Of a stretch of 64,000 bases of DNA, positions 24,522 to 46,641 are shown piece after piece. Source of the stretch: Anaerolineales bacterium. Its GTDB lineage: Bacteria > Chloroflexota > Anaerolineae > Anaerolineales > UBA4823. The notes beneath the pieces were generated by a model. The model searched no databases. It saw only the letters and a list, made by a program, of their open reading frames with translations, and had not been told where the DNA came from. Made by a program: the position numbers and the translations under genes. Within the stretch, counting starts at the first letter, position 1; each line of letters starts with the position of its first letter. The stretch is taken from NCBI GenBank assembly GCA_034430155.1, contig DAOUET010000001.1, forward strand, positions 342 to 64,341, read 5' to 3'.

Positions 24522-26033
24522 ATGATGCAAAAAATAATCCTAAAATTGATCTTGTTGGGACTCTCGCTGGTCATTAGTAGCGCATGTGTGAGGACCGGGA
24601 GTTACTCAGGGATACCCGATATTTTTAGCGAAAAGATACCAACAAGCGATGAGTTATCCCAAGTGAATACCACGGGAGAGGGTGCAAGCCTCGAAAGCGA
24701 TTCATTGAATGTTTATTTCCCCGTGGATGCAATTTTCCAAAGCTTCTATAGCTTCCTCGGTGGACGAGAAATACTCGGTCCGGCGATCTCTCCCCTGGAA
24801 GAACTAGGTGATGTTAAGAGGCAATATGTCGAAGCCGGAATGATGGTTTTTAACCCCAATGCCATTGGAAGTGAACGGTACCAATTATCACCTTTAGGGT
24901 TGGACTTTGGTGTAGCTACCCCAGGGATGCACTCGGCTTCGGATGGTGAAGCCAGGATTATCGATGGACATGTGATATTCAGTAAGTTCATACCGATGTA
25001 TGATAAATTAGGTGGCGCTCGTTTTGTGGGACGGCCGATCACGGAAGCACGCTATGATCCTGAAAATGGTCGTTTTCTCCAATATTTTGAAAATTTAGGG
25101 TTTTATATCCTCGATAGCGATAAGACTGAAAGCATTCGACTATTGGCATATGGCGCCTCATCCTGCGACCAGACTTGCCGTTACAAATCCCCTCCTGAAA
25201 GTATCATAATTCGAAAGCCCTTGCTAACTGAACCATTCGCCTCTATGGTGGACTCAATGGGCCTCCCATTCGTGGGGCGAACCCTGACTGATCCAACCTA
25301 TGCTTATGATGGCAAATCTGAAATTATTTTTGAAAATTTAGTGCTTGTTGAGGATGGGGCTAACCCTCATGGAGTCCTGGTCAAATCGATTGTGAAGATG
25401 CTTGGCTTTCAAGCGAAACCATTGGAGGCCAACCAGAACGATCCCTTGATGGTTTTTTATCCAATCGACGGGGATAAAGGCTACAATGTTCCGGTCTATT
25501 TCGATTCTTATTTACGTTCACACGGAGGATTAGAGGTCTCAGGATTACCTATCAGCGGAGTTTACCAATTAAGAACTGGGGGCTTCCGCCAATGTTTTGA
25601 GAATCTTTGCCTTGATTTCGAGCCTGACTCCCCGGAAGATACCCGCTTGAAACCAGCATCATTGGGGGTGGCGTATAAAAAAGCCTTTTTTAGCCGAGGG
25701 GGCATCTCGTTATCTCTTGATAATATCCAAATATACGTTTGGGAACGAAATCCGGTGGTTATTTCCAGCGACCCCCAAGAGATCTTCGTAGCGATTTTGG
25801 AACATAACAAACCGCTTAAAAATCGGGAACCTATCTTGACTTTGATACTACCCGATGGAGCGCAAGAGACTTATAGATTTCCACCCACGAACGATAGGGG
25901 GCAAACTTCTTTGAAGGTGCCTTCAGTTTCAGCTCCAAACGGCACCTTGATAGCTTACCAGGTCTGCCTACCAGGCGCGGGGGAGGAAAGTCAGTGTGTT
26001 GGGGATAATTACATGATTTGGAAGATCCCTTAA
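24522..26033 (+). CDS. Lipoprotein with four LGFP-like repeats (paralog A)
   Basis: 503 aa with a lipobox (VISSAC). It carries repeated units of the type F..Y..LGG...LG.PI(S/T)...........QYFE.G (for example FIPMYDKLGGARFVGRPITEARYDPENGRFLQYFENLGFY). Confidence 0.7.
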   Translation: MMQKIILKLILLGLSLVISSACVRTGSYSGIPDIFSEKIPTSDELSQVNTTGEGASLESDSLNVYFPVDAIFQSFYSFLGGREILGPAISPLEELGDVKRQYVEAGMMVFNPNAIGSERYQLSPLGLDFGVATPGMHSASDGEARIIDGHVIFSKFIPMYDKLGGARFVGRPITEARYDPENGRFLQYFENLGFYILDSDKTESIRLLAYGASSCDQTCRYKSPPESIIIRKPLLTEPFASMVDSMGLPFVGRTLTDPTYAYDGKSEIIFENLVLVEDGANPHGVLVKSIVKMLGFQAKPLEANQNDPLMVFYPIDGDKGYNVPVYFDSYLRSHGGLEVSGLPISGVYQLRTGGFRQCFENLCLDFEPDSPEDTRLKPASLGVAYKKAFFSRGGISLSLDNIQIYVWERNPVVISSDPQEIFVAILEHNKPLKNREPILTLILPDGAQETYRFPPTNDRGQTSLKVPSVSAPNGTLIAYQVCLPGAGEESQCVGDNYMIWKIP

Positions 26034-26219: not shown

Positions 26220-27905
26220 ATGACCCAGATTTCACTGTCGAGAATATCTGCTTTCGTCAGCCTTATTCTCTTAACCCTTCTCGTGGGAGCTTGTGAGCGT
26301 CTCCAAAGTCTGATGGCGGCTCCAGATTCAACGACACCCTCCATTGATTCATTGAATGTTACCTACCCCGTTGATACAGTATTCGGCGATTTCTACGATT
26401 ACCTAGGTGGAGAGAAATTGCTTGGTCCAGCAATTTCTACTGTACAAGAGTCGGGGGAGGTTATGAGACAGTACGTTGAAGCGGGTTTGCTGGTTTACGA
26501 CCCCCACGCACGACCAGGAGAGAAATTCCATCTCGAGCCGCTGGGGTTGTTATTTGAGATCGAGGAACCACCGGTCCCAAATCCAAACCGGCCGAACGAA
26601 GTAAATATCAACGGTCATATCATCTATGAGCAATTCTTGGCACTTTATCGAAAATTGGGGGGCGCTAGATTTGTCGGACGGCCGATCACCGAAGTGCACT
26701 ATAACCCAGGTAAAAGACGAACGGAGCAATATTTTGAAAACCTAGGTTTTTACATCCTGGATAGCGACCAGACTAAGTCGGTATACCTGCTGGCCTACGG
26801 GACTTTTGTATGCGACCAACAATGCCGGTATAGACGTGATCCCAACAACCTGCCTGCTTCCAAACCTTTTCTACCCACACCGTTCAATGATGAAGTAGCT
26901 CGCTTAGGCTATGACTTTGTGGGGCGTCCACTGACAGAGCCATATAGGCAAACCAGCGGAATGGAAGAAATTATCTTCGATAACCTGGTTATGGTTTACG
27001 AGACTGAACCGCAGATGAATATCATCGAAACACCTGCTAATCTTTGGCTGCCATTAATCTTGAGGACCGGGGCTGATGATCTTCTTAGTGAAAACGGACA
27101 GAGCGGTTTTCTAATATGGCTACCGCAGGTATTATTTACTTTCCCCGACAAATCTGCAAAACAGAAGCAGGATGAATCTTTCAGCTTGATGGTCCCACTT
27201 GTACTGACAAAAGAATCTGCAACATCCTCGAAAGTTTGGATCCGACCGATCGTCGAAATGGTTGGTATTAAACCACAACCACCGGTATCCCCACTGGATG
27301 ATCCCCTCATGGTGTTTTACCCAACCGATGGAGACCTTGGTCACAATGTACCCCTTTACTTCAACGATTTCATTCATCTGCATGGGGGATTGGAGGTCTC
27401 GGGCGAACCGATCACGGAGGTGTTCCGGGTTAATGAAGGGATTTATCGGCAGTGTTTTACGAACCTGTGTCTTGACTTTGATCTCAAAGCACAAAACGGA
27501 GAAAGATTATATCCTGTGTCGTTAGGTGAGGTTTATAAAGAAAAATATTATCCAGGACCAAATGATCAATTCGGAAAACAAAACCTGGAAAACATTAAAA
27601 TTACAGTCTGGGAGGACAAACCTTATGTAACTTCCAGCGAATCTCAGGTGGTCAATGTTTTGATCCGTGAGAACGGAGTGTCATTGAAAAACTGGGAGCC
27701 GGAATTGATCCTGATAATGCCCGATAACCAAGTGGTGAATTACTACTTTCCACCTTCCGATGAGGACGGTAAGAGTTCGGTGCGAATCCCCCCCGTGGCA
27801 GCTCCCAGTGGGACCTTGATCCCTTACCGCGTTTGCCTGAGAGGCGTGAGGGGCGACACTATCTGTGAAGAAAACAACTACCTGATCTGGAATATCCCTA
27901 AATAA
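26220..27905 (+). CDS. Lipoprotein with four LGFP-like repeats (paralog B, with a ~70-aa insertion)
   Basis: 561 aa with a lipobox (LLVGAC). It is colinear with paralog A over the whole length, with many identical blocks (KLGGARFVGRPITE, QYFENLGFYILDSD, DPLMVFYP.DGD.G.NVP.YF, HGGLEVSG.PI). Confidence 0.7.
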   Translation: MTQISLSRISAFVSLILLTLLVGACERLQSLMAAPDSTTPSIDSLNVTYPVDTVFGDFYDYLGGEKLLGPAISTVQESGEVMRQYVEAGLLVYDPHARPGEKFHLEPLGLLFEIEEPPVPNPNRPNEVNINGHIIYEQFLALYRKLGGARFVGRPITEVHYNPGKRRTEQYFENLGFYILDSDQTKSVYLLAYGTFVCDQQCRYRRDPNNLPASKPFLPTPFNDEVARLGYDFVGRPLTEPYRQTSGMEEIIFDNLVMVYETEPQMNIIETPANLWLPLILRTGADDLLSENGQSGFLIWLPQVLFTFPDKSAKQKQDESFSLMVPLVLTKESATSSKVWIRPIVEMVGIKPQPPVSPLDDPLMVFYPTDGDLGHNVPLYFNDFIHLHGGLEVSGEPITEVFRVNEGIYRQCFTNLCLDFDLKAQNGERLYPVSLGEVYKEKYYPGPNDQFGKQNLENIKITVWEDKPYVTSSESQVVNVLIRENGVSLKNWEPELILIMPDNQVVNYYFPPSDEDGKSSVRIPPVAAPSGTLIPYRVCLRGVRGDTICEENNYLIWNIPK

Positions 27906-37927: not shown

Positions 37928-38173
37928 TCAACGCGAGGTAGTGATCTTCAGGATCTTGCCGTTTGAGTTTGCGGTCACCCTCACCAAGCGAGGGATATTC
38001 TTCCCGTTTTGAGCTTGAACGGTGCCTTTATATGTGAGCAGATATTTGGTGGGCGCTGATATAGATTTCGCTTGGGAGGTAGGTTGCATGGTGACCTTTG
38101 GTTGGTGACCTGCCAGTTCGGGGAAGCGTTGATAAACCTGGGAGGATATAGATTTAATCAGTTTTGTATCCAT
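37928..38173 (-). CDS. Small soluble protein, unknown function
   Basis: 81 aa, lying 47 nt downstream of ftsZ on the same strand. No motif recognised. Confidence 0.4.
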   Translation of the reverse strand: MDTKLIKSISSQVYQRFPELAGHQPKVTMQPTSQAKSISAPTKYLLTYKGTVQAQNGKNIPRLVRVTANSNGKILKITTSR

Positions 38174-38220: not shown

Positions 38221-39375
38221 CTAATTTTGGCGAGCCCGGCGACGTAAGAAAGCAGGTATGTCTAGGTTGGTGGATGTGCTTGCCATGACAGGAAGAGGGC
38301 TGGCTTCAACAGCCTGTACCTCAGTTTGAGACCGTGGCCGGGAAACGACTGCATGACGTGGCATCACTTCGTCTAAGGCTGTGCCACCCAAACCTGTGAC
38401 CACAAGAATAACCTGAGCACGGTCGCCCATACATGGATCCTGGATAAAGCCCATGACAATTTCTGTATCAGATTTAGCCTGAGCCTGAAGGTGATTTAGA
38501 GCATCACTCACTTCTAACAAGCTGAGGTCATCTCCCCCGGTAAAGTTGGCGATTATCCCGGCAGCGTTTTCTATGGAAACGGCTTCTAAGAGCGGGTGGT
38601 TTAGCGCTTGTTCGACAGCTTGCAGGGCTTTGCCGTCGCCGTGTCCTTGACCGATGGACATCAACGCTCCCCCGCCCAGTTGCATGAGCCGGCGAATATG
38701 GGCAAAATCAACATTGATCAAGCCAGGCTCGGTAATCAGTTCGGTGACGCCCTGAACAGCCTGCCGTAGAACATCGTCAGCCACGCGAAAAGCTACTTCT
38801 AGAGATAGATCAGTGGGTGCAACGCAAAGCAGGCGATCGTTGGGAATGGAAATGAGTGTGTCGGTTTGAGGTTGCAAGCGCTGTAGACCTTCGCTGGCGT
38901 TCCGTTGGCGACGGCCCATTTCAAAAGAGAAGGGGGTGGTGACAATCGCTATTGTGACGGCGCCTAAACTGCGGGCGATTTTGGCTGCTACCGGTATAGC
39001 GCCAGTGCCTGTACCGCCTCCCATCCCGGCAGTGAGAAAAACCATGCTGGCACCAGCTAATGCAGCTGCCAGTTCTCGGTGGCTTTCCTCGGCTGCTTTA
39101 TATCCGATTTCCGGATTACCGCCTGCCCCCAAACCCCGGGTGACATGTTGACCGAGCTGGATCTTATAGGGGGCGATGCTTGTCTGAAGAGCCTGGTAAT
39201 CGGTATTGGCTGCAATAAATTCAACACCCTGCATACCTAGTTCGATCATACGGTTGACAGCGTTGCAACCACCACCACCCAATCCGATCACCTTCAGGAC
39301 GGGTTGTGGGGTTGATAATGGGGACGAAGAATGTATGTCTCTCATAATTTCCTTCTCTGGATAATGGCGTATCAT
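38221..39375 (-). CDS. ftsZ: Cell division GTPase FtsZ
   Basis: IKVIGLGGGGCNAVNRMI and the tubulin signature GGGTGTGA are present, with the C-terminal peptide DIPAFLRRR. The in-frame ATG at 39345 (MRDIHSS), preceded by AAGGA, is the more likely start. Confidence 0.95.
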   Translation of the reverse strand: MIRHYPEKEIMRDIHSSSPLSTPQPVLKVIGLGGGGCNAVNRMIELGMQGVEFIAANTDYQALQTSIAPYKIQLGQHVTRGLGAGGNPEIGYKAAEESHRELAAALAGASMVFLTAGMGGGTGTGAIPVAAKIARSLGAVTIAIVTTPFSFEMGRRQRNASEGLQRLQPQTDTLISIPNDRLLCVAPTDLSLEVAFRVADDVLRQAVQGVTELITEPGLINVDFAHIRRLMQLGGGALMSIGQGHGDGKALQAVEQALNHPLLEAVSIENAAGIIANFTGGDDLSLLEVSDALNHLQAQAKSDTEIVMGFIQDPCMGDRAQVILVVTGLGGTALDEVMPRHAVVSRPRSQTEVQAVEASPLPVMASTSTNLDIPAFLRRRARQN

Positions 39376-39424
39376 CGGGATATATGCTTCCGGAGTTTCA
39401 AACAGTTTGCTTCAAGATTCCTGT

Positions 39425-39440
39425 TGCAATTCTCATGCCA
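39425..39440 (-). promoter_or_regulatory. Sigma-54 (-24/-12) promoter candidate upstream of ftsZ
   Basis: The minus strand reads AG-TGGCAT-GAGAA-TTGCA-AC. This fits YTGGCACGrNNNTTGCW with a single C-to-T change. The -24 element overlaps the last codons and stop of the upstream gene. It lies 50-80 nt upstream of the candidate ftsZ starts. Confidence 0.6.
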
Positions 39441-40791
39441 CTAAATCAAGGTGTTCAACATCACAACCAGCAGATTCCAGGTTTTTCTTTAATTTTTCTG
39501 AAAATGCTTCTTTTTTCCCGGCAATCGTGACGAGCTTGGCCAGAGCAGCTTCTTCAGTTGAGAAACCAATGGTAGGTTTGTATTTTTTCACATAAGGCTG
39601 GATGGCTTGAAGGTACCAATCGGGGATACCCCACTCGTATGAGGGTAGCAAGAGATAATGGGAAATAGGGTGTTGGGAATGCACTTTTTCATTTGAAATC
39701 AAGTCCTTTGAGTCGCCGGGAGACTGAGGGCGCCTCAGCGAAGATCTCTCTTGGGATTTAGGGGCAACCTGATGGCCGCTGAACCATTGGCGTAAGGTCG
39801 AGACGATAGGGAGCGTGCTGCCATCTGGTTTGTACCAGGCATCTGGCAGATCCGGGCTATGATGATCGGCGGTGATCAACCAAAAATTACCAGCCAGGAC
39901 TTCCTGGGGAACGGTTTCCAGTGGGTCTGCCATGTAAGGCTCGAGCGTGTCTCCGGCCATACGCCTGGCGATGGTTAGGGTCCGCAGGGTCCGGGCAGTA
40001 TCATCGATTGAGTCTGGAGCGCTGTTACCAGGAGAACGCTGGTGGCTGCCGACTCCCAACAAAAGGATCCCCGTTGATCTACCGGTTACAGCTCGAATGA
40101 TGGCAAGGTACCAGTCAAAGATGCGAAAGCCACGCTGATCCTCGCTCCTGGGCGGTGTGAAATATGGCCGGGCACCTGGCCAGCTTTCGGGTCCACCATA
40201 TCCCCAATTTAAAGGTCGTTCACCAGCGCGAGCGTAAGCTGCCAAAACTAGAACCTCAAGCAAATCATGTAAGCCGCGCCGCTTTAATGCCTGGAAAGCT
40301 GCCCGTAAGAAAGCGGTATCCCAATAATCGCCTCCGGGTTCCAATGGTGGAAAAATAGGGATCAATCCAGCTTGCCTGGCTGATTCGGCAAGCGGTACGA
40401 AATGGTCGAGGAATCTCTCGACCAGCTCATTCTGTACCCATCCCCCCATAGGCCAGGCTGTGCGGGTATTCGGGCAATCGAACAGGATAACATAATGGAT
40501 GCCCCAACGTGCGTAGGTGGAAAATAACAACGCCAAATCAGTTTGTGAATGAGGGATTCCCAAAGGCAGATGGAAGTGCAATACCGGTTCGATGTGCGCC
40601 CGGGCTAATCCGCGTAGAAATTGTTCAGGGATGGCGCGATCCGTAGGCGCAACCAGAATTAACCAATTGGCTCCCAGGGCGCGTAATTCAGGCAACCAGG
40701 CGCGCAAATCGCTTTGCCGGAAGTGCTCAGTATCAGGGAAATAATGAAATCCCAAACGGGTGTTATTTTTTGGAGTAGGGAAATTGAGCAT
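39433..40791 (-). CDS. Hypothetical protein, possibly TIM-barrel glycoside-hydrolase-like
   Basis: 452 aa with no signal peptide. The alternating beta/alpha pattern with WVQNELV and FPPLEPGG resembles clan GH-A acid/base and nucleophile positions, but the similarity is weak. The C-terminal ~80 aa form a separate small domain. Confidence 0.6.
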   Translation of the reverse strand: MLNFPTPKNNTRLGFHYFPDTEHFRQSDLRAWLPELRALGANWLILVAPTDRAIPEQFLRGLARAHIEPVLHFHLPLGIPHSQTDLALLFSTYARWGIHYVILFDCPNTRTAWPMGGWVQNELVERFLDHFVPLAESARQAGLIPIFPPLEPGGDYWDTAFLRAAFQALKRRGLHDLLEVLVLAAYARAGERPLNWGYGGPESWPGARPYFTPPRSEDQRGFRIFDWYLAIIRAVTGRSTGILLLGVGSHQRSPGNSAPDSIDDTARTLRTLTIARRMAGDTLEPYMADPLETVPQEVLAGNFWLITADHHSPDLPDAWYKPDGSTLPIVSTLRQWFSGHQVAPKSQERSSLRRPQSPGDSKDLISNEKVHSQHPISHYLLLPSYEWGIPDWYLQAIQPYVKKYKPTIGFSTEEAALAKLVTIAGKKEAFSEKLKKNLESAGCDVEHLDLVA

Positions 40792-40814: not shown

Positions 40815-40830
40815 TGCAAGAGGTATGCCA
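40815..40830 (-). promoter_or_regulatory. Sigma-54 (-24/-12) promoter candidate upstream of the 452-aa gene
   Basis: The minus strand reads CC-TGGCAT-ACCTC-TTGCA-CC, in the 71-nt gap after the activator gene. It is followed by a GGAGAG RBS and the ATG at 40791. Confidence 0.55.
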
Positions 40831-40862: not shown

Positions 40863-42038
40863 TTAAGAATCAGGGTGGATGATTTCCCTGGGAAGATGGG
40901 GTAAATCGATGGCCGGATCATCGCAGAACAGCATGGCTCTTTCGATGATGTTTTGAAGTTCGCGTATGTTGCCAGGCCAATCATGATTCATCAAAGCCTG
41001 CATTGCGCGGGGGGTTACCTCGGAGATATTTAACCCCATCCTGGGGTTATTTTTTCTCAAGAACAGGCCGATAAGTTCGGGGATATCCTGTTTGCGTTCC
41101 CGTAGAGGTGGCAGGTGTAGATCGACCACTTTCAGCCTATAGTACAGGTCTTCCCGGAATTCAGCGGCTTTGATTAATGAAGGCAAGTCCCTGTTTGAGG
41201 CAGCGATGATTTGCACATCGACGCGCAGCATGTTAGTGCCACCAACCCGGCGAATGGCACCCTCCTCGAGAGCGCGCAGAAGTTTGGCTTGCATTTCTAC
41301 TGGCATAGACGAGATCTCATCGAGGAAAAGGATGCCCTCGTCGGCGATTTCCATCAATCCGGGCTTGCGTTTATCCGCGCTGGTGAATGCACCTGCCTCA
41401 TGCCCAAATAGCTCTGTTTCGAGCATAGTGCTCTGGAGGGCGGCGCAATTCACGGCAATAAACGGTTTTCCAGCCCGAGTTCCCATCTGGTGAAGGGCAT
41501 GGGCTAATACTTCTTTGCCCGTGCCGGTCTCACCGGTAATTAACACAGAGACTGATGCAGTGGCAGCCCGTTGTGCCTGGTTTAGCAAGGATTGCATCGC
41601 CTGGCTGTTACCCACCACAAAATCGAGATGCTTATATTGGGTTTCACGCAGATGGTTTAGCTCACGCTGCATGGAAACCTGTTCTACGGCTCTTTCGATG
41701 GATTTTTCTAATACGTTCAATTGAATCGGTTTCTGTAGAAAATCAAGGGCACCATTCTTCATGGCATCAACCGCCATGTCGATATCGCCATAAGCGGTGA
41801 TCAAAATGATGGGAGGTCGAACAGGGAGATGGGTAGTCTCTTCCAGCAGGGAAGGGCCATAACCATCTGGGAGCAATACATCCAGCAGAATAATATCCGC
41901 TTCACCACGGCGGACATAATTCCGGGCGTCTTCTAAGGTGGCGACTCCATGGACCTCGTAGCCTCGAGAAACTAGAAAGGTGGAGATGTTCTCGCGAGCG
42001 TTATCTTCATCATCAACAATCAAAATAGTTGCGGTCAT
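40863..42038 (-). CDS. Sigma-54-dependent response regulator (REC + AAA+), lacking a C-terminal HTH domain
   Basis: 391 aa. REC domain (ILIVDDE ... IILLDVLLPDG). AAA+ domain with Walker A GETGTGKE, ELFGHEAGAFTSA (a GAFTGA variant) and sensor II GNIRELQN. The protein ends ~25 aa later with no Fis-type HTH. Confidence 0.9.
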   Translation of the reverse strand: MTATILIVDDEDNARENISTFLVSRGYEVHGVATLEDARNYVRRGEADIILLDVLLPDGYGPSLLEETTHLPVRPPIILITAYGDIDMAVDAMKNGALDFLQKPIQLNVLEKSIERAVEQVSMQRELNHLRETQYKHLDFVVGNSQAMQSLLNQAQRAATASVSVLITGETGTGKEVLAHALHQMGTRAGKPFIAVNCAALQSTMLETELFGHEAGAFTSADKRKPGLMEIADEGILFLDEISSMPVEMQAKLLRALEEGAIRRVGGTNMLRVDVQIIAASNRDLPSLIKAAEFREDLYYRLKVVDLHLPPLRERKQDIPELIGLFLRKNNPRMGLNISEVTPRAMQALMNHDWPGNIRELQNIIERAMLFCDDPAIDLPHLPREIIHPDS

Positions 42039-42046
42039 AATCTTCT

Positions 42047-43999
42047 CTAGGTCTCGTTTCGTTCAGCGGCCGGGAAGCGGGCTTGAAAGACCGTTCCTCC
42101 AGGTACGCTGGCAACTTCGATAGTACCCTTGTGAGCAGTGATAATGCGTTTGGCTATCGCCAGACCCAGACCGGTGCCTTCACTATTTGTAGTGAAGAAG
42201 GGCTCAAAAATGTGCTCGCGAATGTCTTCCGGGATACCTGGACCGTTATCCGCTACACTGACCTCGATATGCCGGCGTTCTCCTGGCCGGGTGATCGAAC
42301 GCAAGTGCACGGTGAGCATACCACCTTTTTCTCCCATAGCCTGGATAGCGTTACTGATCAGATTAGTAAAAACCTGTTCCAAGGCGCGAGAATCGCCGAT
42401 TACGAGGGGATTTTTGGCGGTGACGGTAAGTTTATGCTCTATGTTTACGCGTGCCATCCTGGGACGCCAACGTTCTAGTAAGCGGTGAACCAACAAACCG
42501 AGATCAACTTTATCCATCCTGGATTGGGATGGATGCGAGAAGGATAAAACGGATTGCATCAAATGAGCCAGGCGTTCGCAATCGGTTCCTAAACGAGCGA
42601 TGATCTCTTGATTGGGATCATCTTCGGGTAAATTGTAAGCGATGAGTTGAAGGCCAGTGCTGATATTATTGATCGGGTTTCGCACTTCGTGGGCAAAAAT
42701 TGCGGTGATTTCGCCTAGAAGGGCGCGTTGTTCTAACTGTTGGTTACGAACCTGATATTGTTCGCGCTCGCTTAAATCTCGGAGAAGGAGGATGGCGCGA
42801 TGAAATTTGTCTTTGTAAAAGACTGGCAGAATGCGGATGAGGGCCAGAAAAGCGCCCCCATCTCGACGATGTATCCGGACGTTACCTAAATTGTGGGTGG
42901 GTATCCCCTGTTGAGCTGCCTGGAGTGCAGGTATCAGGTTTTCCGCGCCAATGATGACGTTTTCGATCGGTTGACCGTTTACTTCGCGGGTGGCATATCC
43001 AAGAATCCACTCAGCAGAAGGATTCATTTCTATTATTTTTTGATCGGGCCCAATGATGATGACACCTTCCCGCACAGATTCCTTGATGGTATCGGCGAGT
43101 GTAAGACCGATTGATTGTATTTCAATTTGTTCGAACAAGTTGGACGTCAGGGATTTTTGCTGGACGATAGCCATGATTGCGGCTGCTATTATTTGAAGGA
43201 CCGGTAGAATGTTGGTAGTCGGACTTGATGCGGGGTCAGCGATGACGATCAATCCCGAAAATTTTCCAGGTTGGCCGAGGGGCGCTGAAGCCAGGTAGGT
43301 GAATTTTGCCGCTCGAGCTGCTCGCAGTAAACCGCAGGTGGCGCGTTTACCCGGGATCCAGAGGCGGGGATCCAAAATTTGGCTGACATCTGAAGGGGGG
43401 ATGCGTTCAGGCAACTCCGCAGCAGTCCCCCAGTTAGCGATTCGTTTAAGACCCGGTGAGCGAGGGTCGACAACATAGATCGCCAGGATGGCGGCGCCTG
43501 AAAGCGTGTGTCCAGTTTGCAGGGCGGATTGGATGGCCTGTCGAAAGTCGCTTTCCTGGGTGGATAGAATTAATTTGTAGAGAAGGTCTAAAAGTCTGTT
43601 ATGTCGTTGTTTTTCAGCTTGTTGTAAGCGATGAAGCTGCTCTTGCTCCAGGACGACCAGAGCGATCGAGCTTGGGGAGTTGAGGCGGTTTAAAGTTAAG
43701 AACACCTCAACTTTTGTGCCTCGGCGGGCATTAATACTGGTTGTGAAACTTGTGATCGCATTTCCTATGCCTTGAGGGTGATCCATCACCCCCAAAGCTG
43801 GTATCAAGGAGTCCAGGTTGAGATCTATCAATTCGCTCCGTGTAAAAGAAGTCAGTTCGGTAGCTTGGGCATTCGCAAGCAGTATCTCGTTTCCCTGCAA
43901 ATCGACGAGCAAAGCTGCCTGAGGGAAAACGTCGAGAAAACTCTCAATCTCAGTAAGGGACAGCTGCCGACGCCGTAAAAATGACAATGAGGGGAGCAT
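42047..43999 (-). CDS. Cytoplasmic PAS/GAF/PAS sensor histidine kinase
   Basis: 650 aa with no TM segments. H-box [12 protein letters not shown], plus N, G1 and G2 boxes ([26 protein letters not shown]). The gaps to both neighbours are 8-11 nt. Confidence 0.9.
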
Positions 44000-44010: not shown

Positions 44011-45438
44011 CTATGCGGGTTTAGGGGATTCCTTAACCTGACGAAGATGGGATGGCAGGATACCTTCCATGGATCTGTATTTTGCTACCGTACGTCTGGC
44101 GACGTGAAAACCCTGCTCGTTGAGCAGACTGACAATTTCATTGTCGCTTAGAGGTTTTTTTTCGTTGTCGATGATCTCTTTGATCACGCTGCGTATATGG
44201 AGACTGCGATCGAAGAATTTTGAGAGCGGGATAATGTGTCCATTGGGCAGCTGTGCAGCTTTGCTGGAAACTGCTCGTGAAATGGTTGATTCGTGAACAT
44301 CCAGCTCCTCCGCCAATTTGGCCCGGGTGTAAGGACGAAGGTAACAATCACCATGAAGGATAAATTCACGTTGTAATTTGGTGATCCGGCGCATCAAGCG
44401 TACCATAGTATTGGCGCGTTGTTGAATACACTTTACCAGCAAATCTGCACGTTCCAAATCCGATTTCCACTGTTCGACTTTATCGGCAGGAGCTTGCCCG
44501 AGCGCCTGGCGGAAGAGTGGGTTGACTTGAAGCAACCCCAGGAAGGGTGAAACGATTTCCACGACCAGGGGGGCATTAGCGTTGCCCTGGAGTAAAGAGA
44601 TGATCACATCCGGATTATTGTAAACTCTCGGGCTTTCGGCGGTCCCTTGACGGATATCGCCCCAATAAGCACGCCCCGGATATGGATTCAAGTTGTCGCT
44701 GATAAAACGGGCAATCTCCCTAACCTTACGGCTGGATATCCCTAGTAAACGACCTAGTTCGGTATATTGGTGACGGCTGAGTAATTCAAGCCCTGATTTG
44801 ATGGCTTCATCTGCCAGTGGAGGCACGGGGAAATTTTCTGCCAGCAATTCCAATTGTACCAATAAGGCTTCCCGGGGGGAGGAGGAGCCAACACCTACAG
44901 GATCCGCCCGCTGGATAATGTTCAGGATTTTCTCAACCTTCCCAAGCGAAACGTGGTGGTATCGGGCGACTTCCAGAGGGGTGGTGTCCAGCAAACCATC
45001 CTCATCTAAATTGGTAAGCAGATGAGCAGCCAGGCGGCGGTCATCTGGATCAAGATCTGGGGCGATCTGGCGTAATACAAAAGTAGGTAGTTCCTCTTTT
45101 GCAGGTGTAAGGTTTTCCCCGGAGAACTCTTCAGCCGAAGATCTTCTGGATACATAAAAATCCTGGCGAGGAGAAACGAATATGATCGGTTCTTCCATGG
45201 AAAGTGATTTTGGTGTGCTGCAGCGTGGGCAGGGTTGCGAACCGATCAGAGGGCGATGGCAGGTGGGACAACGACGCTCCTCTCTTAACTCTAATGCTGG
45301 ATTTTGTGACAGTTCTGTTTCGATTTTTTGATTTAGTTCAACCGCAGTAAGTTCGAGAAGCGACATGGTTTGAGCCAGGTGCGCGGTGGTGAGCGGACGT
45401 AATGTAGTTGCTGGACGGAGGATCTGAACTTGTAACAT
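44011..45438 (-). CDS. rpoN: RNA polymerase sigma-54 factor with a Zn-ribbon insertion
   Basis: 475 aa. Region I (LTTAHLAQTMSLLELTAVELNQKIETELSQNPALE) and a C-terminal HTH plus RpoN box (ARRTVAKYR). CPTC-x9-CPRC occurs at residues 57-73. Confidence 0.9.
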   Translation of the reverse strand: MLQVQILRPATTLRPLTTAHLAQTMSLLELTAVELNQKIETELSQNPALELREERRCPTCHRPLIGSQPCPRCSTPKSLSMEEPIIFVSPRQDFYVSRRSSAEEFSGENLTPAKEELPTFVLRQIAPDLDPDDRRLAAHLLTNLDEDGLLDTTPLEVARYHHVSLGKVEKILNIIQRADPVGVGSSSPREALLVQLELLAENFPVPPLADEAIKSGLELLSRHQYTELGRLLGISSRKVREIARFISDNLNPYPGRAYWGDIRQGTAESPRVYNNPDVIISLLQGNANAPLVVEIVSPFLGLLQVNPLFRQALGQAPADKVEQWKSDLERADLLVKCIQQRANTMVRLMRRITKLQREFILHGDCYLRPYTRAKLAEELDVHESTISRAVSSKAAQLPNGHIIPLSKFFDRSLHIRSVIKEIIDNEKKPLSDNEIVSLLNEQGFHVARRTVAKYRSMEGILPSHLRQVKESPKPA

Positions 45439-45540
45439 AATGATGAAATCCTTTGATGCTGCTTATCAAAATGAAGGAATCTTAAAATTGAGAATTAAAC
45501 TCATGGAATTTTCTTCTCAGTAGAGACATATACACTCGTT

Positions 45541-45556
45541 GCAAGTTCCGTGCCAG
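45541..45556 (-). promoter_or_regulatory. Sigma-54 (-24/-12) promoter upstream of rpoN
   Basis: The minus strand reads C-TGGCAC-GGAAC-TTGCA-A, a perfect match to TGGCACG-N4-TTGCW. It lies ~100 nt upstream of the rpoN ATG. Confidence 0.7.
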
Positions 45557-45636
45557 CTGTTATTGAGAACCACCCCCTGATTAGATGTTTATAGCCCTGC
45601 TGACTAACCAGGGGGTGTAGTAAATCTTCTCATTTC

Positions 45637-45665
45637 AATTATCGCGAAAAATCCGAGCGAGTCAA
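45637..45665 (-). promoter_or_regulatory. Sigma-70-type promoter upstream of the rpoN sigma-54 promoter
   Basis: The minus strand reads TTGACT (45665-45660), a 17-nt spacer, then ATAATT (45642-45637). Confidence 0.45.
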
Positions 45666-45694: not shown

Positions 45695-46195
45695 TCATGG
45701 CTGGTCAGGAGCAGGGGCGACTTGAACCATAGTAGTAGACCCATCGGGGGCAGTAAGCATCACGGCGATGTGCTGCGCTCCCGATCTCGGAATTAAGATA
45801 TAGCCAGAACAGCTGCCTACCCACTGGTTCTTAACCCCAGAATGGGGGTATAGGGTGCAGTCTTCGGGTATATCTTGTTTATTTGTATCTAATGGTTGAT
45901 CGCTGATAGCCCAACCCGAGGATTTCCATAACTCTGCGACCAGGTCTGTGGTGGCCACGAACACCTGACCTTCAAATTCTGCCATTCCCTGGGGTATTTG
46001 GGAGGGGTTTGAAGAGGACTGAGACTTAGACGAAATCGGTGCACCGGCTTCTCCTGCTGGATTGATGGAGGAGGCTGAGTCTGGGACTTGTGCGGCATCT
46101 GTGAGGATGGATGCTGAGGAGATTTGCACAGGAGAACAAGCGGATGAAAGACTTAAAATGAACAACAATACCGGGATAAAAATAATTTTGCCCAT
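45695..46195 (-). CDS. Small lipoprotein, unknown function
   Basis: 166 aa with a lipobox (LSLSSAC). A Ser/Pro-rich linker is followed by a ~90-aa globular part. Confidence 0.6.
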   Translation of the reverse strand: MGKIIFIPVLLFILSLSSACSPVQISSASILTDAAQVPDSASSINPAGEAGAPISSKSQSSSNPSQIPQGMAEFEGQVFVATTDLVAELWKSSGWAISDQPLDTNKQDIPEDCTLYPHSGVKNQWVGSCSGYILIPRSGAQHIAVMLTAPDGSTTMVQVAPAPDQP

Positions 46196-46262: not shown

Positions 46263-46278
46263 TGCAAGATTGGGGCCA
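46263..46278 (-). promoter_or_regulatory. Weaker sigma-54-like element upstream of the lipoprotein gene
   Basis: The minus strand reads TT-TGGCCC-CAATC-TTGCA-TC. GG-N10-GC spacing and the full -12 TTGCA are kept, with one mismatch in the -24 hexamer. It lies 68 nt upstream of ATG 46195. Confidence 0.3.
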
Positions 46279-46569: not shown

Positions 46570-46641
46570 TACCCCCACCGCGACTCGAACGCGGGTATCT
46601 GCCTCCGGAGGGCAGCGCTCTATCCACTGAGCTATGGGGGC
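46570..46641 (-). tRNA. tRNA-Arg (anticodon CCG)
   Basis: The reverse complement is GCCCCCATAGCTCAGTGGATAGAGCGCTGCCCTCCGGAGGCAGATACCCGCGTTCGAGTCGCGGTGGGGGTA. The anticodon stem is CTGCC/GGCAG with loop CTCCGGA (CCG). The T arm is CCGCG-TTCGAGT-CGCGG. There is a G1-U72 wobble, and CCA is not encoded. Confidence 0.88.

Follow-up and report, generated by a model that had tools for sequence, protein, structure and literature searches.

Which sigma factor reads the division gene ftsZ is the question raised by a stretch of 64,000 nucleotides from an Anaerolineales bacterium (Chloroflexota; assembly GCA_034430155.1, contig DAOUET010000001.1, positions 342 to 64,341), here called the window. Escherichia coli uses the sigma-70/sigma-S promoters of ftsQAZ, and Streptomyces and Bacillus possess developmental ftsZ promoters, all of them belonging to the sigma-70 family. 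To our knowledge, only promoters of that family have been described for ftsZ until now. A first-pass annotation of the window, however, placed a sigma-54 promoter directly upstream of ftsZ, overlapping the stop codon of the preceding gene, p452. Promoters of this type give no transcript before an AAA+ activator has hydrolysed ATP. Comparison with related loci indicates that the element, termed PftsZ, is probably a functional sigma-54 promoter, with ftsZ transcription predicted to begin some 12 nt past the GC dinucleotide, and that it belongs to a small clustered regulon conserved across Anaerolineae. The members proposed for this regulon are p166, the genes for sigma-54 (rpoN), a histidine kinase (HK) and a sigma-54 activator, or bacterial enhancer-binding protein (EBP), then p452, ftsZ and, in some lineages, p106 with a tetratricopeptide repeat (TPR) gene.

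PftsZ is a -24/-12 element, TGGCAT-gagaa-TTGCA, at 39425..39440 of the minus strand, with its GG at 39439-39438 and its GC at 39427-39426. Read directly from the window, minus strand 39440-39425 is gTGGCATgagaaTTGCAac (equal to TGGCATgagaaTTGCA) with flanks g...ac, and the interval 39444-39421 reads ttagTGGCATgagaaTTGCAacag. The 3' end of p452 is GTG GCA TGA, and the T of its stop codon (39435-39433) forms the sixth and last base of the -24 hexamer. Both invariant dinucleotides and the 10-nt spacing between them are preserved, which places GG and GC one helical turn apart as in TGGCAC-N5-TTGCW.

A short degenerate pattern such as this can arise by chance: its 16 nt specify only 11 bases, and single shuffled windows sometimes match it (mean 0.21). 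Exact matches to TGGCAY-N5-TTGCW nevertheless number three in the window against 0.21 expected, a count reached by none of 100 shuffles, and all three lie on the minus (gene) strand directly upstream of rpoN, p452 and ftsZ. A position weight matrix (PWM) derived from the orthologous sites scores these three sites at 23.0-26.5 bits, with 23.8 bits for PftsZ, whereas the maximum over 20 window shuffles is 16.3. The strand read and the shuffle statistics thus bear out the motif claimed upstream of ftsZ and its overlap with the p452 stop.

The same element recurs in related genomes. The sample consists of the 80 best FtsZ relatives (58-72% FtsZ identity), one genome per species, whose records are labelled Anaerolineae or Chloroflexota and are mostly metagenome-assembled genomes. 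p452 lies directly upstream of ftsZ in 79 of these 80 loci. Within 400 nt upstream of ftsZ, the motif is present in 73 loci with at most one mismatch, in 76 with at most two mismatches and GG/GC intact, and in 78 by PWM. The first-pass annotation had stated that its claim would fail if the motif were not conserved in orthologous ftsZ upstream regions; the opposite is found, in 73-78 of the 80 loci. Over the 1.17 Mb that the loci comprise, there are 133 exact matches, compared with 2-8 in Markov-1 simulations, and all except one are on the ftsZ strand. Together with the fixed positions of the sites relative to genes, these comparative data refute a chance match, whose probability is negligible.

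The sites fall into a few classes. Those before ftsZ (62 exact, 78 by PWM) and before p452 (57 exact, 73 by PWM; the motif precedes p452 in 66 of 69 loci) are by far the largest, followed by those before rpoN (14 by PWM), those before p106 and the TPR gene TPR1892 (11 of 33 loci) and those before p166 (4 of 5 loci). The region upstream of p275, with no site in 57 loci, serves as an internal negative control. Four loci (L032, L033, L065 and L067) are without PftsZ; in these, p452 and ftsZ are about 10 nt apart and the promoter before p452, Pp452, is retained, so that ftsZ would ride on the upstream sigma-54 promoter.

Since PftsZ touches a coding region, its conservation could in principle result from selection on the peptide DGTSIATQLAER at the C-terminus of p452, the resemblance to a sigma-54 promoter being coincidental. 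In 65 of the 80 loci the motif is indeed translated in one constant frame, gaT GGC ACa agT aTT GCA (D-G-T-S-I-A), or more generally gaT GGC ACn nnn nTT GCA (D-G-T-x-I/L-A), and the p452 stop in those orthologues typically follows 34 nt after the motif start. Synonymous positions, however, are fixed beyond codon usage. Glycine is encoded by GGC in 58 of 65 cases against 36% usage in the same genes, alanine by GCA in 64 of 65 against 22%, and the xTT codon is found in 65 of 65, whereas the glycine codon one position upstream uses all four possibilities (GGA 19, GGG 9, GGT 5, GGC 5). The encoded residues vary (T/M/I; S/D/E/N/T/V/L/F) while the bases of the motif stay.

The motif also persists where this frame does not apply. 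In six loci (L011, L056, L060, L068, L069 and L078) the p452 stop comes 5-6 nt ahead of the motif, and the motif is retained outside the coding sequence. In L081 and L084, the closest relatives of the window (p452 74-78% identical), the motif is gTGGCACAgGAATTGCA and is read in another frame, GTG GCA CAG GAA TTG CAA; relative to these two, a C-to-T change creates the p452 stop in the window. The same motif occurs, moreover, in purely intergenic DNA before p452 and rpoN. Synonymous fixation, retention in non-coding DNA and use of a second frame together imply a constraint on the DNA, and the conservation goes beyond what coding or neutral drift would give. Coding constraint on p452 was therefore rejected as the cause on codon usage, frame and non-coding retention, and a coincidental resemblance is very improbable.

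If PftsZ is a promoter, the last ~12 codons of p452 in most species would be the translation of that promoter plus the ftsZ Shine-Dalgarno sequence. Here a promoter would plainly determine the sequence of a protein tail, a natural example of dual coding. The tail DGTSIATQLAER* is seen in most orthologues (for example L013, 4312-4348), with the stop TGA inside GAGAGGTGA, and is absent where the open reading frame (ORF) ends before the motif.

The position of the element relative to ftsZ is likewise informative. The gene (374 aa; 38221..39345, minus strand) encodes a full-length match to TIGR00065 (383.8 bits against a curated cut-off of 295.2) with the tubulin GTPase and FtsZ_C domains (Pfam Tubulin and FtsZ_C) and the canonical C-terminal tail DIPAFLRRR. 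Its conserved start is the ATG at 39345, which is preceded by AGAAGGAAATT, unchanged in two close relatives, and carries an AAGGA Shine-Dalgarno sequence 7 nt upstream. An in-frame ATG at 39375 would lengthen FtsZ by 10 codons; this upstream start is ruled out in L081 by an in-frame TAA, and ftsZ of L081 is called as 374 aa. The block of Shine-Dalgarno sequence and ATG is identical in L081 and L084, and the remaining leader is poorly conserved.

With the C at 39426 taken as -12, transcription of ftsZ would begin at about 39414 (+/-2). Sigma-54 promoter geometry accordingly predicts a leader of ~69 nt (39346..39414, minus strand) for the ATG at 39345 and of ~39 nt for that at 39375, in keeping with the ~40-70 nt given in the first-pass annotation and with its preference for the ATG at 39345, which proves to be the conserved one. 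A known RNA element or structured leader was considered and rejected, as Rfam gives no family match near PftsZ and the predicted leader has no significant RNA fold (z = +0.5). Among 76 loci, the -12 C and the ftsZ ATG are separated by at least 25 nt, with modes at 26 nt (13 loci) and 36 nt (7 loci), and a Shine-Dalgarno sequence stands between the predicted +1 and the ATG in every one. The -12 C never comes closer than 25 nt, and thus the Shine-Dalgarno sequence is always kept in the predicted transcript. Such spacing, combined with sense orientation in 132 of the 133 exact sites, would be what a promoter needs, unlike a mere binding site.

Geometry also bears on the proposal that PftsZ binds the sigma-54 holoenzyme without productive transcription, the closed complex being a roadblock or insulator and restricting the read-through that reaches ftsZ from Pp452. 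Closed complexes of sigma-54 persist stably when no activator is present, and the site is intragenic, within the p452 tail, in most orthologues. Intragenic sigma-54 sites mapped in E. coli are reported to behave in this manner, and conserved binding inside genes is widespread there (PMC4591121). A roadblock, on the other hand, does not account for a site that is always in sense orientation, lies at least 25 nt from the ATG and has the Shine-Dalgarno sequence downstream of the predicted +1. The site is also missing in precisely those loci in which p452 and ftsZ have become tightly coupled, and its quality equals that of the intergenic Pp452 and of the site before rpoN, PrpoN. Binding without transcription is thus an improbable explanation, well behind an active promoter.

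A stronger competitor is that the sigma-54 promoter is real and yet auxiliary, most ftsZ mRNA deriving from unrecognised sigma-70-type promoters or from read-through, with sigma-54 tuning expression under particular conditions and division not dependent on the activator. Essential genes are, after all, seldom entrusted to an activator-dependent sigma factor alone. In the window, five genes (rpoN-HK-EBP-p452-ftsZ) run in the same direction without a predicted terminator, and a good sigma-70-like promoter stands upstream of rpoN. Sigma-70-like sites were sought by a simple scan for the -35/-10 consensus. On the gene strand, sites matching at least 9 of 12 positions precede p452 in 15 of 71 loci (15.3 expected from shuffles; 2 at 10 of 12 or better) and ftsZ in 9 of 78 loci (12.8 expected; none at 10 of 12 or better). 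The same scan detects such sites before rpoN in 5 of 8 loci (1.4 expected; 4 at 10 of 12 or better) and, on the divergent strand upstream of p452, in 21 of 71 loci (10 at 10 of 12 or better). Sigma-70-type -35/-10 elements in the style of the division and cell wall (dcw) cluster are therefore not enriched upstream of ftsZ, although the scan recovers sites elsewhere.

Individual genomes agree with these counts. In the isolate Longilinea arvoryzae KOME-1 (L048), no sigma-70-like match is found on the gene strand anywhere in the p452-ftsZ unit. In the window, no such site is found on the minus strand at 39345-40520, and the nearest recognisable promoter of ftsZ is the sigma-54 one, just as the first-pass annotation held. 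That annotation also raised the question of sigma-70 promoters further upstream; on the minus strand there is none from ftsZ up to 40520 and there is one (10/12) upstream of rpoN. Read-through into p452-ftsZ is excluded in the 57 of 69 loci in which the gene upstream of p452 is divergent. The unit has two tandem sigma-54 promoters, and its short intergenic DNA holds no conserved alternative element. A merely auxiliary role is accordingly unlikely, though it is the most serious of the alternatives to a sigma-54 promoter driving ftsZ.

Several observations nevertheless weigh against that preferred reading. The first-pass annotation called the motif near-perfect with one change only; the GG/GC and spacing part of this holds, and the single change does not, as PftsZ deviates from YTGGCACGrNNNTTGCW at two positions, with a G at the Y position and a T for C. 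The element of the window is 95 nt from the ATG at 39345, as against the usual 40-50. The sigma-70 scan is crude and the housekeeping promoters of Chloroflexota are poorly characterised, so that weak or atypical ones could escape it. The five window genes all point the same way and are separated by short gaps, and transcription begun at the sigma-70-like promoter at 45665-45638 could run on into ftsZ without PftsZ; terminators are predicted neither between p452 and ftsZ nor between the upstream genes. The 80 loci are phylogenetically related, and their counts are not independent events. Finally, rpoN-HK-EBP lies within 8 kb upstream of ftsZ in only ~23-30 of the 80 loci, and the activator is paired with PftsZ and Pp452 by association.

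The proteins required to operate such a promoter are encoded next to it. The minus-strand order is p166, rpoN, HK, EBP, p452, ftsZ, an 81-aa ORF, p275, p106 and TPR proteins. rpoN (44011..45438, minus strand) encodes a sigma-54 with the activator-interacting, core-binding and DNA-binding Pfam domains, all above cut-off, and an RpoN box read as ARRTVAKYR; its TIGR02395 score of 260 bits is just under the cut-off of 277. The kinase (42047..43999, minus strand) has the Pfam architecture PAS ... PAS-HisKA-HATPase_c, its start abutting the rpoN stop and its end the EBP start. Pfam found no membrane-associated domain in it, and by eye it looks soluble.

The activator (391 aa; 40863..42038, minus strand) combines, by Pfam, a receiver (REC) domain, an AAA+ domain and an AAA lid. 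Its Sigma54_activat match (228 bits) includes the loop GAFTSA, which is GAFTGA in most orthologues, and the Walker A motif GETGTGKE. The Response_reg domain (residues 5-114, 86 bits) has the acidic pair DD at 9-10 and the phospho-acceptor D53 (ILLDV). The protein ends at residue 391, right behind AAA_lid_14 (313-388), without a C-terminal helix-turn-helix (HTH) of the Fis type, and matches positions 1-381 of 463 in the NtrC model and 5-393 of 461 in that of AtoC. Since it covers only this part of NtrC and stops after the lid, it lacks an HTH DNA-binding domain. Of 28 orthologues, 24 have 388-397 aa, the other four being called ORFs of 399-447 aa; all align only as far as the end of the lid, and one of the 28 has an internal stop.

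Taken together, PftsZ most likely represents a true sigma-54 promoter of ftsZ throughout the class, with the neighbouring two-component system activating it from solution. In the proposed mechanism, the sigma-54 holoenzyme would bind Pp452 and PftsZ as closed complexes, and the PAS kinase would phosphorylate D53 in the receiver domain of the EBP, leading to its oligomerisation. Having no DNA-binding domain, the EBP would act from solution, opening the complexes by ATP hydrolysis with no enhancer, as FlgR and CtcC do. The output of ftsZ and p452 would then follow the intracellular signal of the kinase. The sigma-54 site of rpoN, located downstream of a sigma-70-like promoter, may add feedback, positive with the activator on and by occlusion with the activator off. 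The earlier claim that ftsZ output depends on an ATP-hydrolysing activator and its kinase is supported as regards motif conservation and the presence of rpoN, kinase and activator; strict dependence on this activator, as well as the start site and the physiological role, we infer from sequence.

The individual parts of this system resemble known ones. Canonical sigma-54 promoters such as glnAp2 and pspA of Enterobacteria (TGGCAC-N5-TTGCW) share with PftsZ the GG/GC dinucleotides, the spacing and the extended consensus, and PftsZ is suitably oriented and spaced relative to the gene start; here too, a sigma-54 with an RpoN box occurs along with an AAA+ activator of the GAFTGA type. PftsZ differs from them in that its target is ftsZ, that in most orthologues it falls within the 3' coding end of the preceding gene and that no enhancer is expected. 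Compared with ftsZ of model bacteria, the gene likewise has a promoter of its own, placed within or at the end of the preceding gene, besides transcription from further upstream, but both recognisable promoters are of the sigma-54 type and would need ATP hydrolysis by an activator.

The activator finds its closest counterparts in the group-5 bEBPs, which consist of REC and AAA+ without a DNA-binding domain and include FlgR and CtcC (PMC7175178, Table 1; PMC7482065). As in the FlgS-FlgR pair of Helicobacter and Campylobacter and the CtcB-CtcC pair of Chlamydia, the activator has REC and AAA+ domains without an HTH and is encoded beside a kinase, a likeness that is one of architecture. Judging from this architecture, it presumably activates a small sigma-54 regulon from solution, independently of enhancers, like FlgR and CtcC. 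The targets of the latter are flagellar genes or late developmental, membrane and type III secretion genes, whereas here they would be ftsZ and conserved neighbours. A further difference is that rpoN, kinase and activator form one operon beside their targets, rpoN having a sigma-54 site of its own.

Previous surveys give little indication of such a system. Cell division was not over-represented around sigma-54, its activators or their promoters (Table 2: COG D '- - -'), and sigma-54 was noted in only 'some Chloroflexi' (Francke, 2011; PMC3162934). A 2025 regulon survey based on position-specific scoring matrices does not list ftsZ among sigma-54 targets, and Chloroflexota go unmentioned in it (PMC12316311). 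In the full-text literature on sigma-54 with ftsZ, Chloroflexi or Anaerolineae, no report of ftsZ control or of an Anaerolineae regulon was found. The parts are ordinary, and what is new is the target, ftsZ, and the wiring, an unreported arrangement conserved across a class.

A bolder reading, which is possible yet rather doubtful, regards sigma-54 as essentially a dedicated division sigma factor in Anaerolineae. Its regulon would comprise little more than p166, rpoN-HK-EBP, p452, ftsZ and p106-TPR, ftsZ would be without a sigma-70 promoter, and septation would be strictly licensed by ATP hydrolysis of the EBP under a cytoplasmic PAS kinase. rpoN, kinase and activator would then be essential, and p452, p106 and the giant TPR proteins would be lineage-specific divisome components of filamentous bacteria.

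The more conservative interpretation of PftsZ, as a sigma-54 promoter within a small regulon, would itself have wide consequences if true. Division would be gated by a two-component signal rather than merely tracking growth, across a class of filamentous bacteria abundant in anaerobic digesters, sediments and soils. It would supply a concrete reason for a possible essentiality of sigma-54 in some lineages, extend to septation the idea that sigma-54 controls the cell exterior, and provide a third, free-living case of an activator lacking a DNA-binding domain with a compact regulon. The co-regulated uncharacterised proteins would become candidates for division factors of Chloroflexota, a phylum in which the machinery of division has received little study.

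Foremost among these is p452 (452 aa; 39433..40791, minus strand), a conserved hypothetical protein with no Pfam, NCBIfam or PDB sequence match and with more than 1500 homologues, all unnamed. Its AlphaFold2 (AF2) model (pLDDT 81) consists of a TIM-barrel and a small alpha/beta domain, for which Foldseek returns weak matches only (TM 0.3-0.4), to aldolase and to barrels of glycoside hydrolase families GH5 and GH10. The attempt to assign a function by these sequence and structure searches therefore ended at a generic TIM-barrel. Because it always adjoins ftsZ on the upstream side and has its own sigma-54 promoter, p452 is a candidate lineage-specific division or cell-wall factor. That promoter, Pp452, is the element cTGGCATacctcTTGCAcc at 40815..40830 (minus strand; 26.5 bits) in the 71-nt gap between EBP and p452, identical in L081 and L084; its predicted +1 lies ~13-15 nt before the p452 ATG, just ahead of AGGAG.

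The third exact site of the window, PrpoN, is the consensus element cTGGCACggaacTTGCAac (a perfect cTGGCACggaacTTGCA) at 45540..45555 (minus strand; 23.0 bits), ~100 nt upstream of rpoN and conserved in L081. Upstream of PrpoN stands the sigma-70-like promoter TTGACT-16-GATAAT (45638..45665, minus strand), which at 10/12 is the best match in 36-46.6 kb, is identical in L081 and probably provides basal transcription of the rpoN-HK-EBP operon. Tandem arrangements before rpoN, with a sigma-70-like -35/-10 or a TATAAT box followed by a sigma-54 site, are seen in the window, L001, L003, L005 and L079. They suggest autoregulation of the sigma-54 operon, either as feedback activation or as occlusion by the closed complex.

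Between the two rpoN sites of the window lies a 14-bp hairpin, ACACCCCCUGGUUAG...CUAAUCAGGGGGUG (45568-45617, minus strand; z = -3.8). Its stem is kept in L081 with changes in the loop, and a similar CCCCCTGG...CCAGGGGG occurs in L006. The hairpin might serve as an attenuator in the leader or as an operator; it was rejected as a part of the core system, being present only in the window, L081 and L006 and not in more distant loci.

A weaker sigma-54-like element, TGGCCCcaatcTTGCA (46263..46278, minus strand), scores 13.9 bits, which is within the range of shuffled sequence. It lies ~68 nt upstream of the lipoprotein-like p166 (45695-46195, minus strand) and forms an identical 16-nt island in the otherwise diverged DNA of L081. 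Four of the five loci that have p166 possess sites of this kind, and ones of the TGGCC/TGGCG type stand before p166 in L001, L003, L005 and L079. At the other end of the cluster, 11 of 33 loci carry a sigma-54 motif before p106-TPR1892(-p924), for example L012 at 10340, L014 at 3173, L017 at 11810, L022 at 11739 and L023 at 10611. Before p106 of the window, which comes straight after p275, the motif was not found. In some lineages, the giant TPR proteins may be members of the same regulon as ftsZ.

In its wider setting, the ftsZ of the window lies outside any dcw cluster, behind the TIM-barrel gene p452. In Longilinea, the genes flanking p452-ftsZ are NAD-dependent epimerase-like, GH57-like and unknown ones, with no ftsA, ftsQ or mur among them. 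The search for a second ftsZ that had been advised earlier was run in the 64-kb window only and found none there, nor is there a second sigma-54 activator in the window. Just downstream of ftsZ, the 81-aa ORF (37928-38173, minus strand) has no family match and is also called at the same position in L081. p275 and p106 are likewise without family match, and the TPR proteins are 1892 and 924 aa long. A tRNA gene at 46570-46641 of the minus strand (RF00005 in Rfam, 64 bits) lies upstream of the cluster of p166 and rpoN. Elsewhere in the window, 24522-26033 and 26220-27905 of the plus strand encode adjacent paralogous secreted or lipoprotein-like proteins of 503 and 561 aa, which, by eye in the ORF list, share long conserved blocks such as GGARFVGRPITE and QYFENLGFYILDSD.

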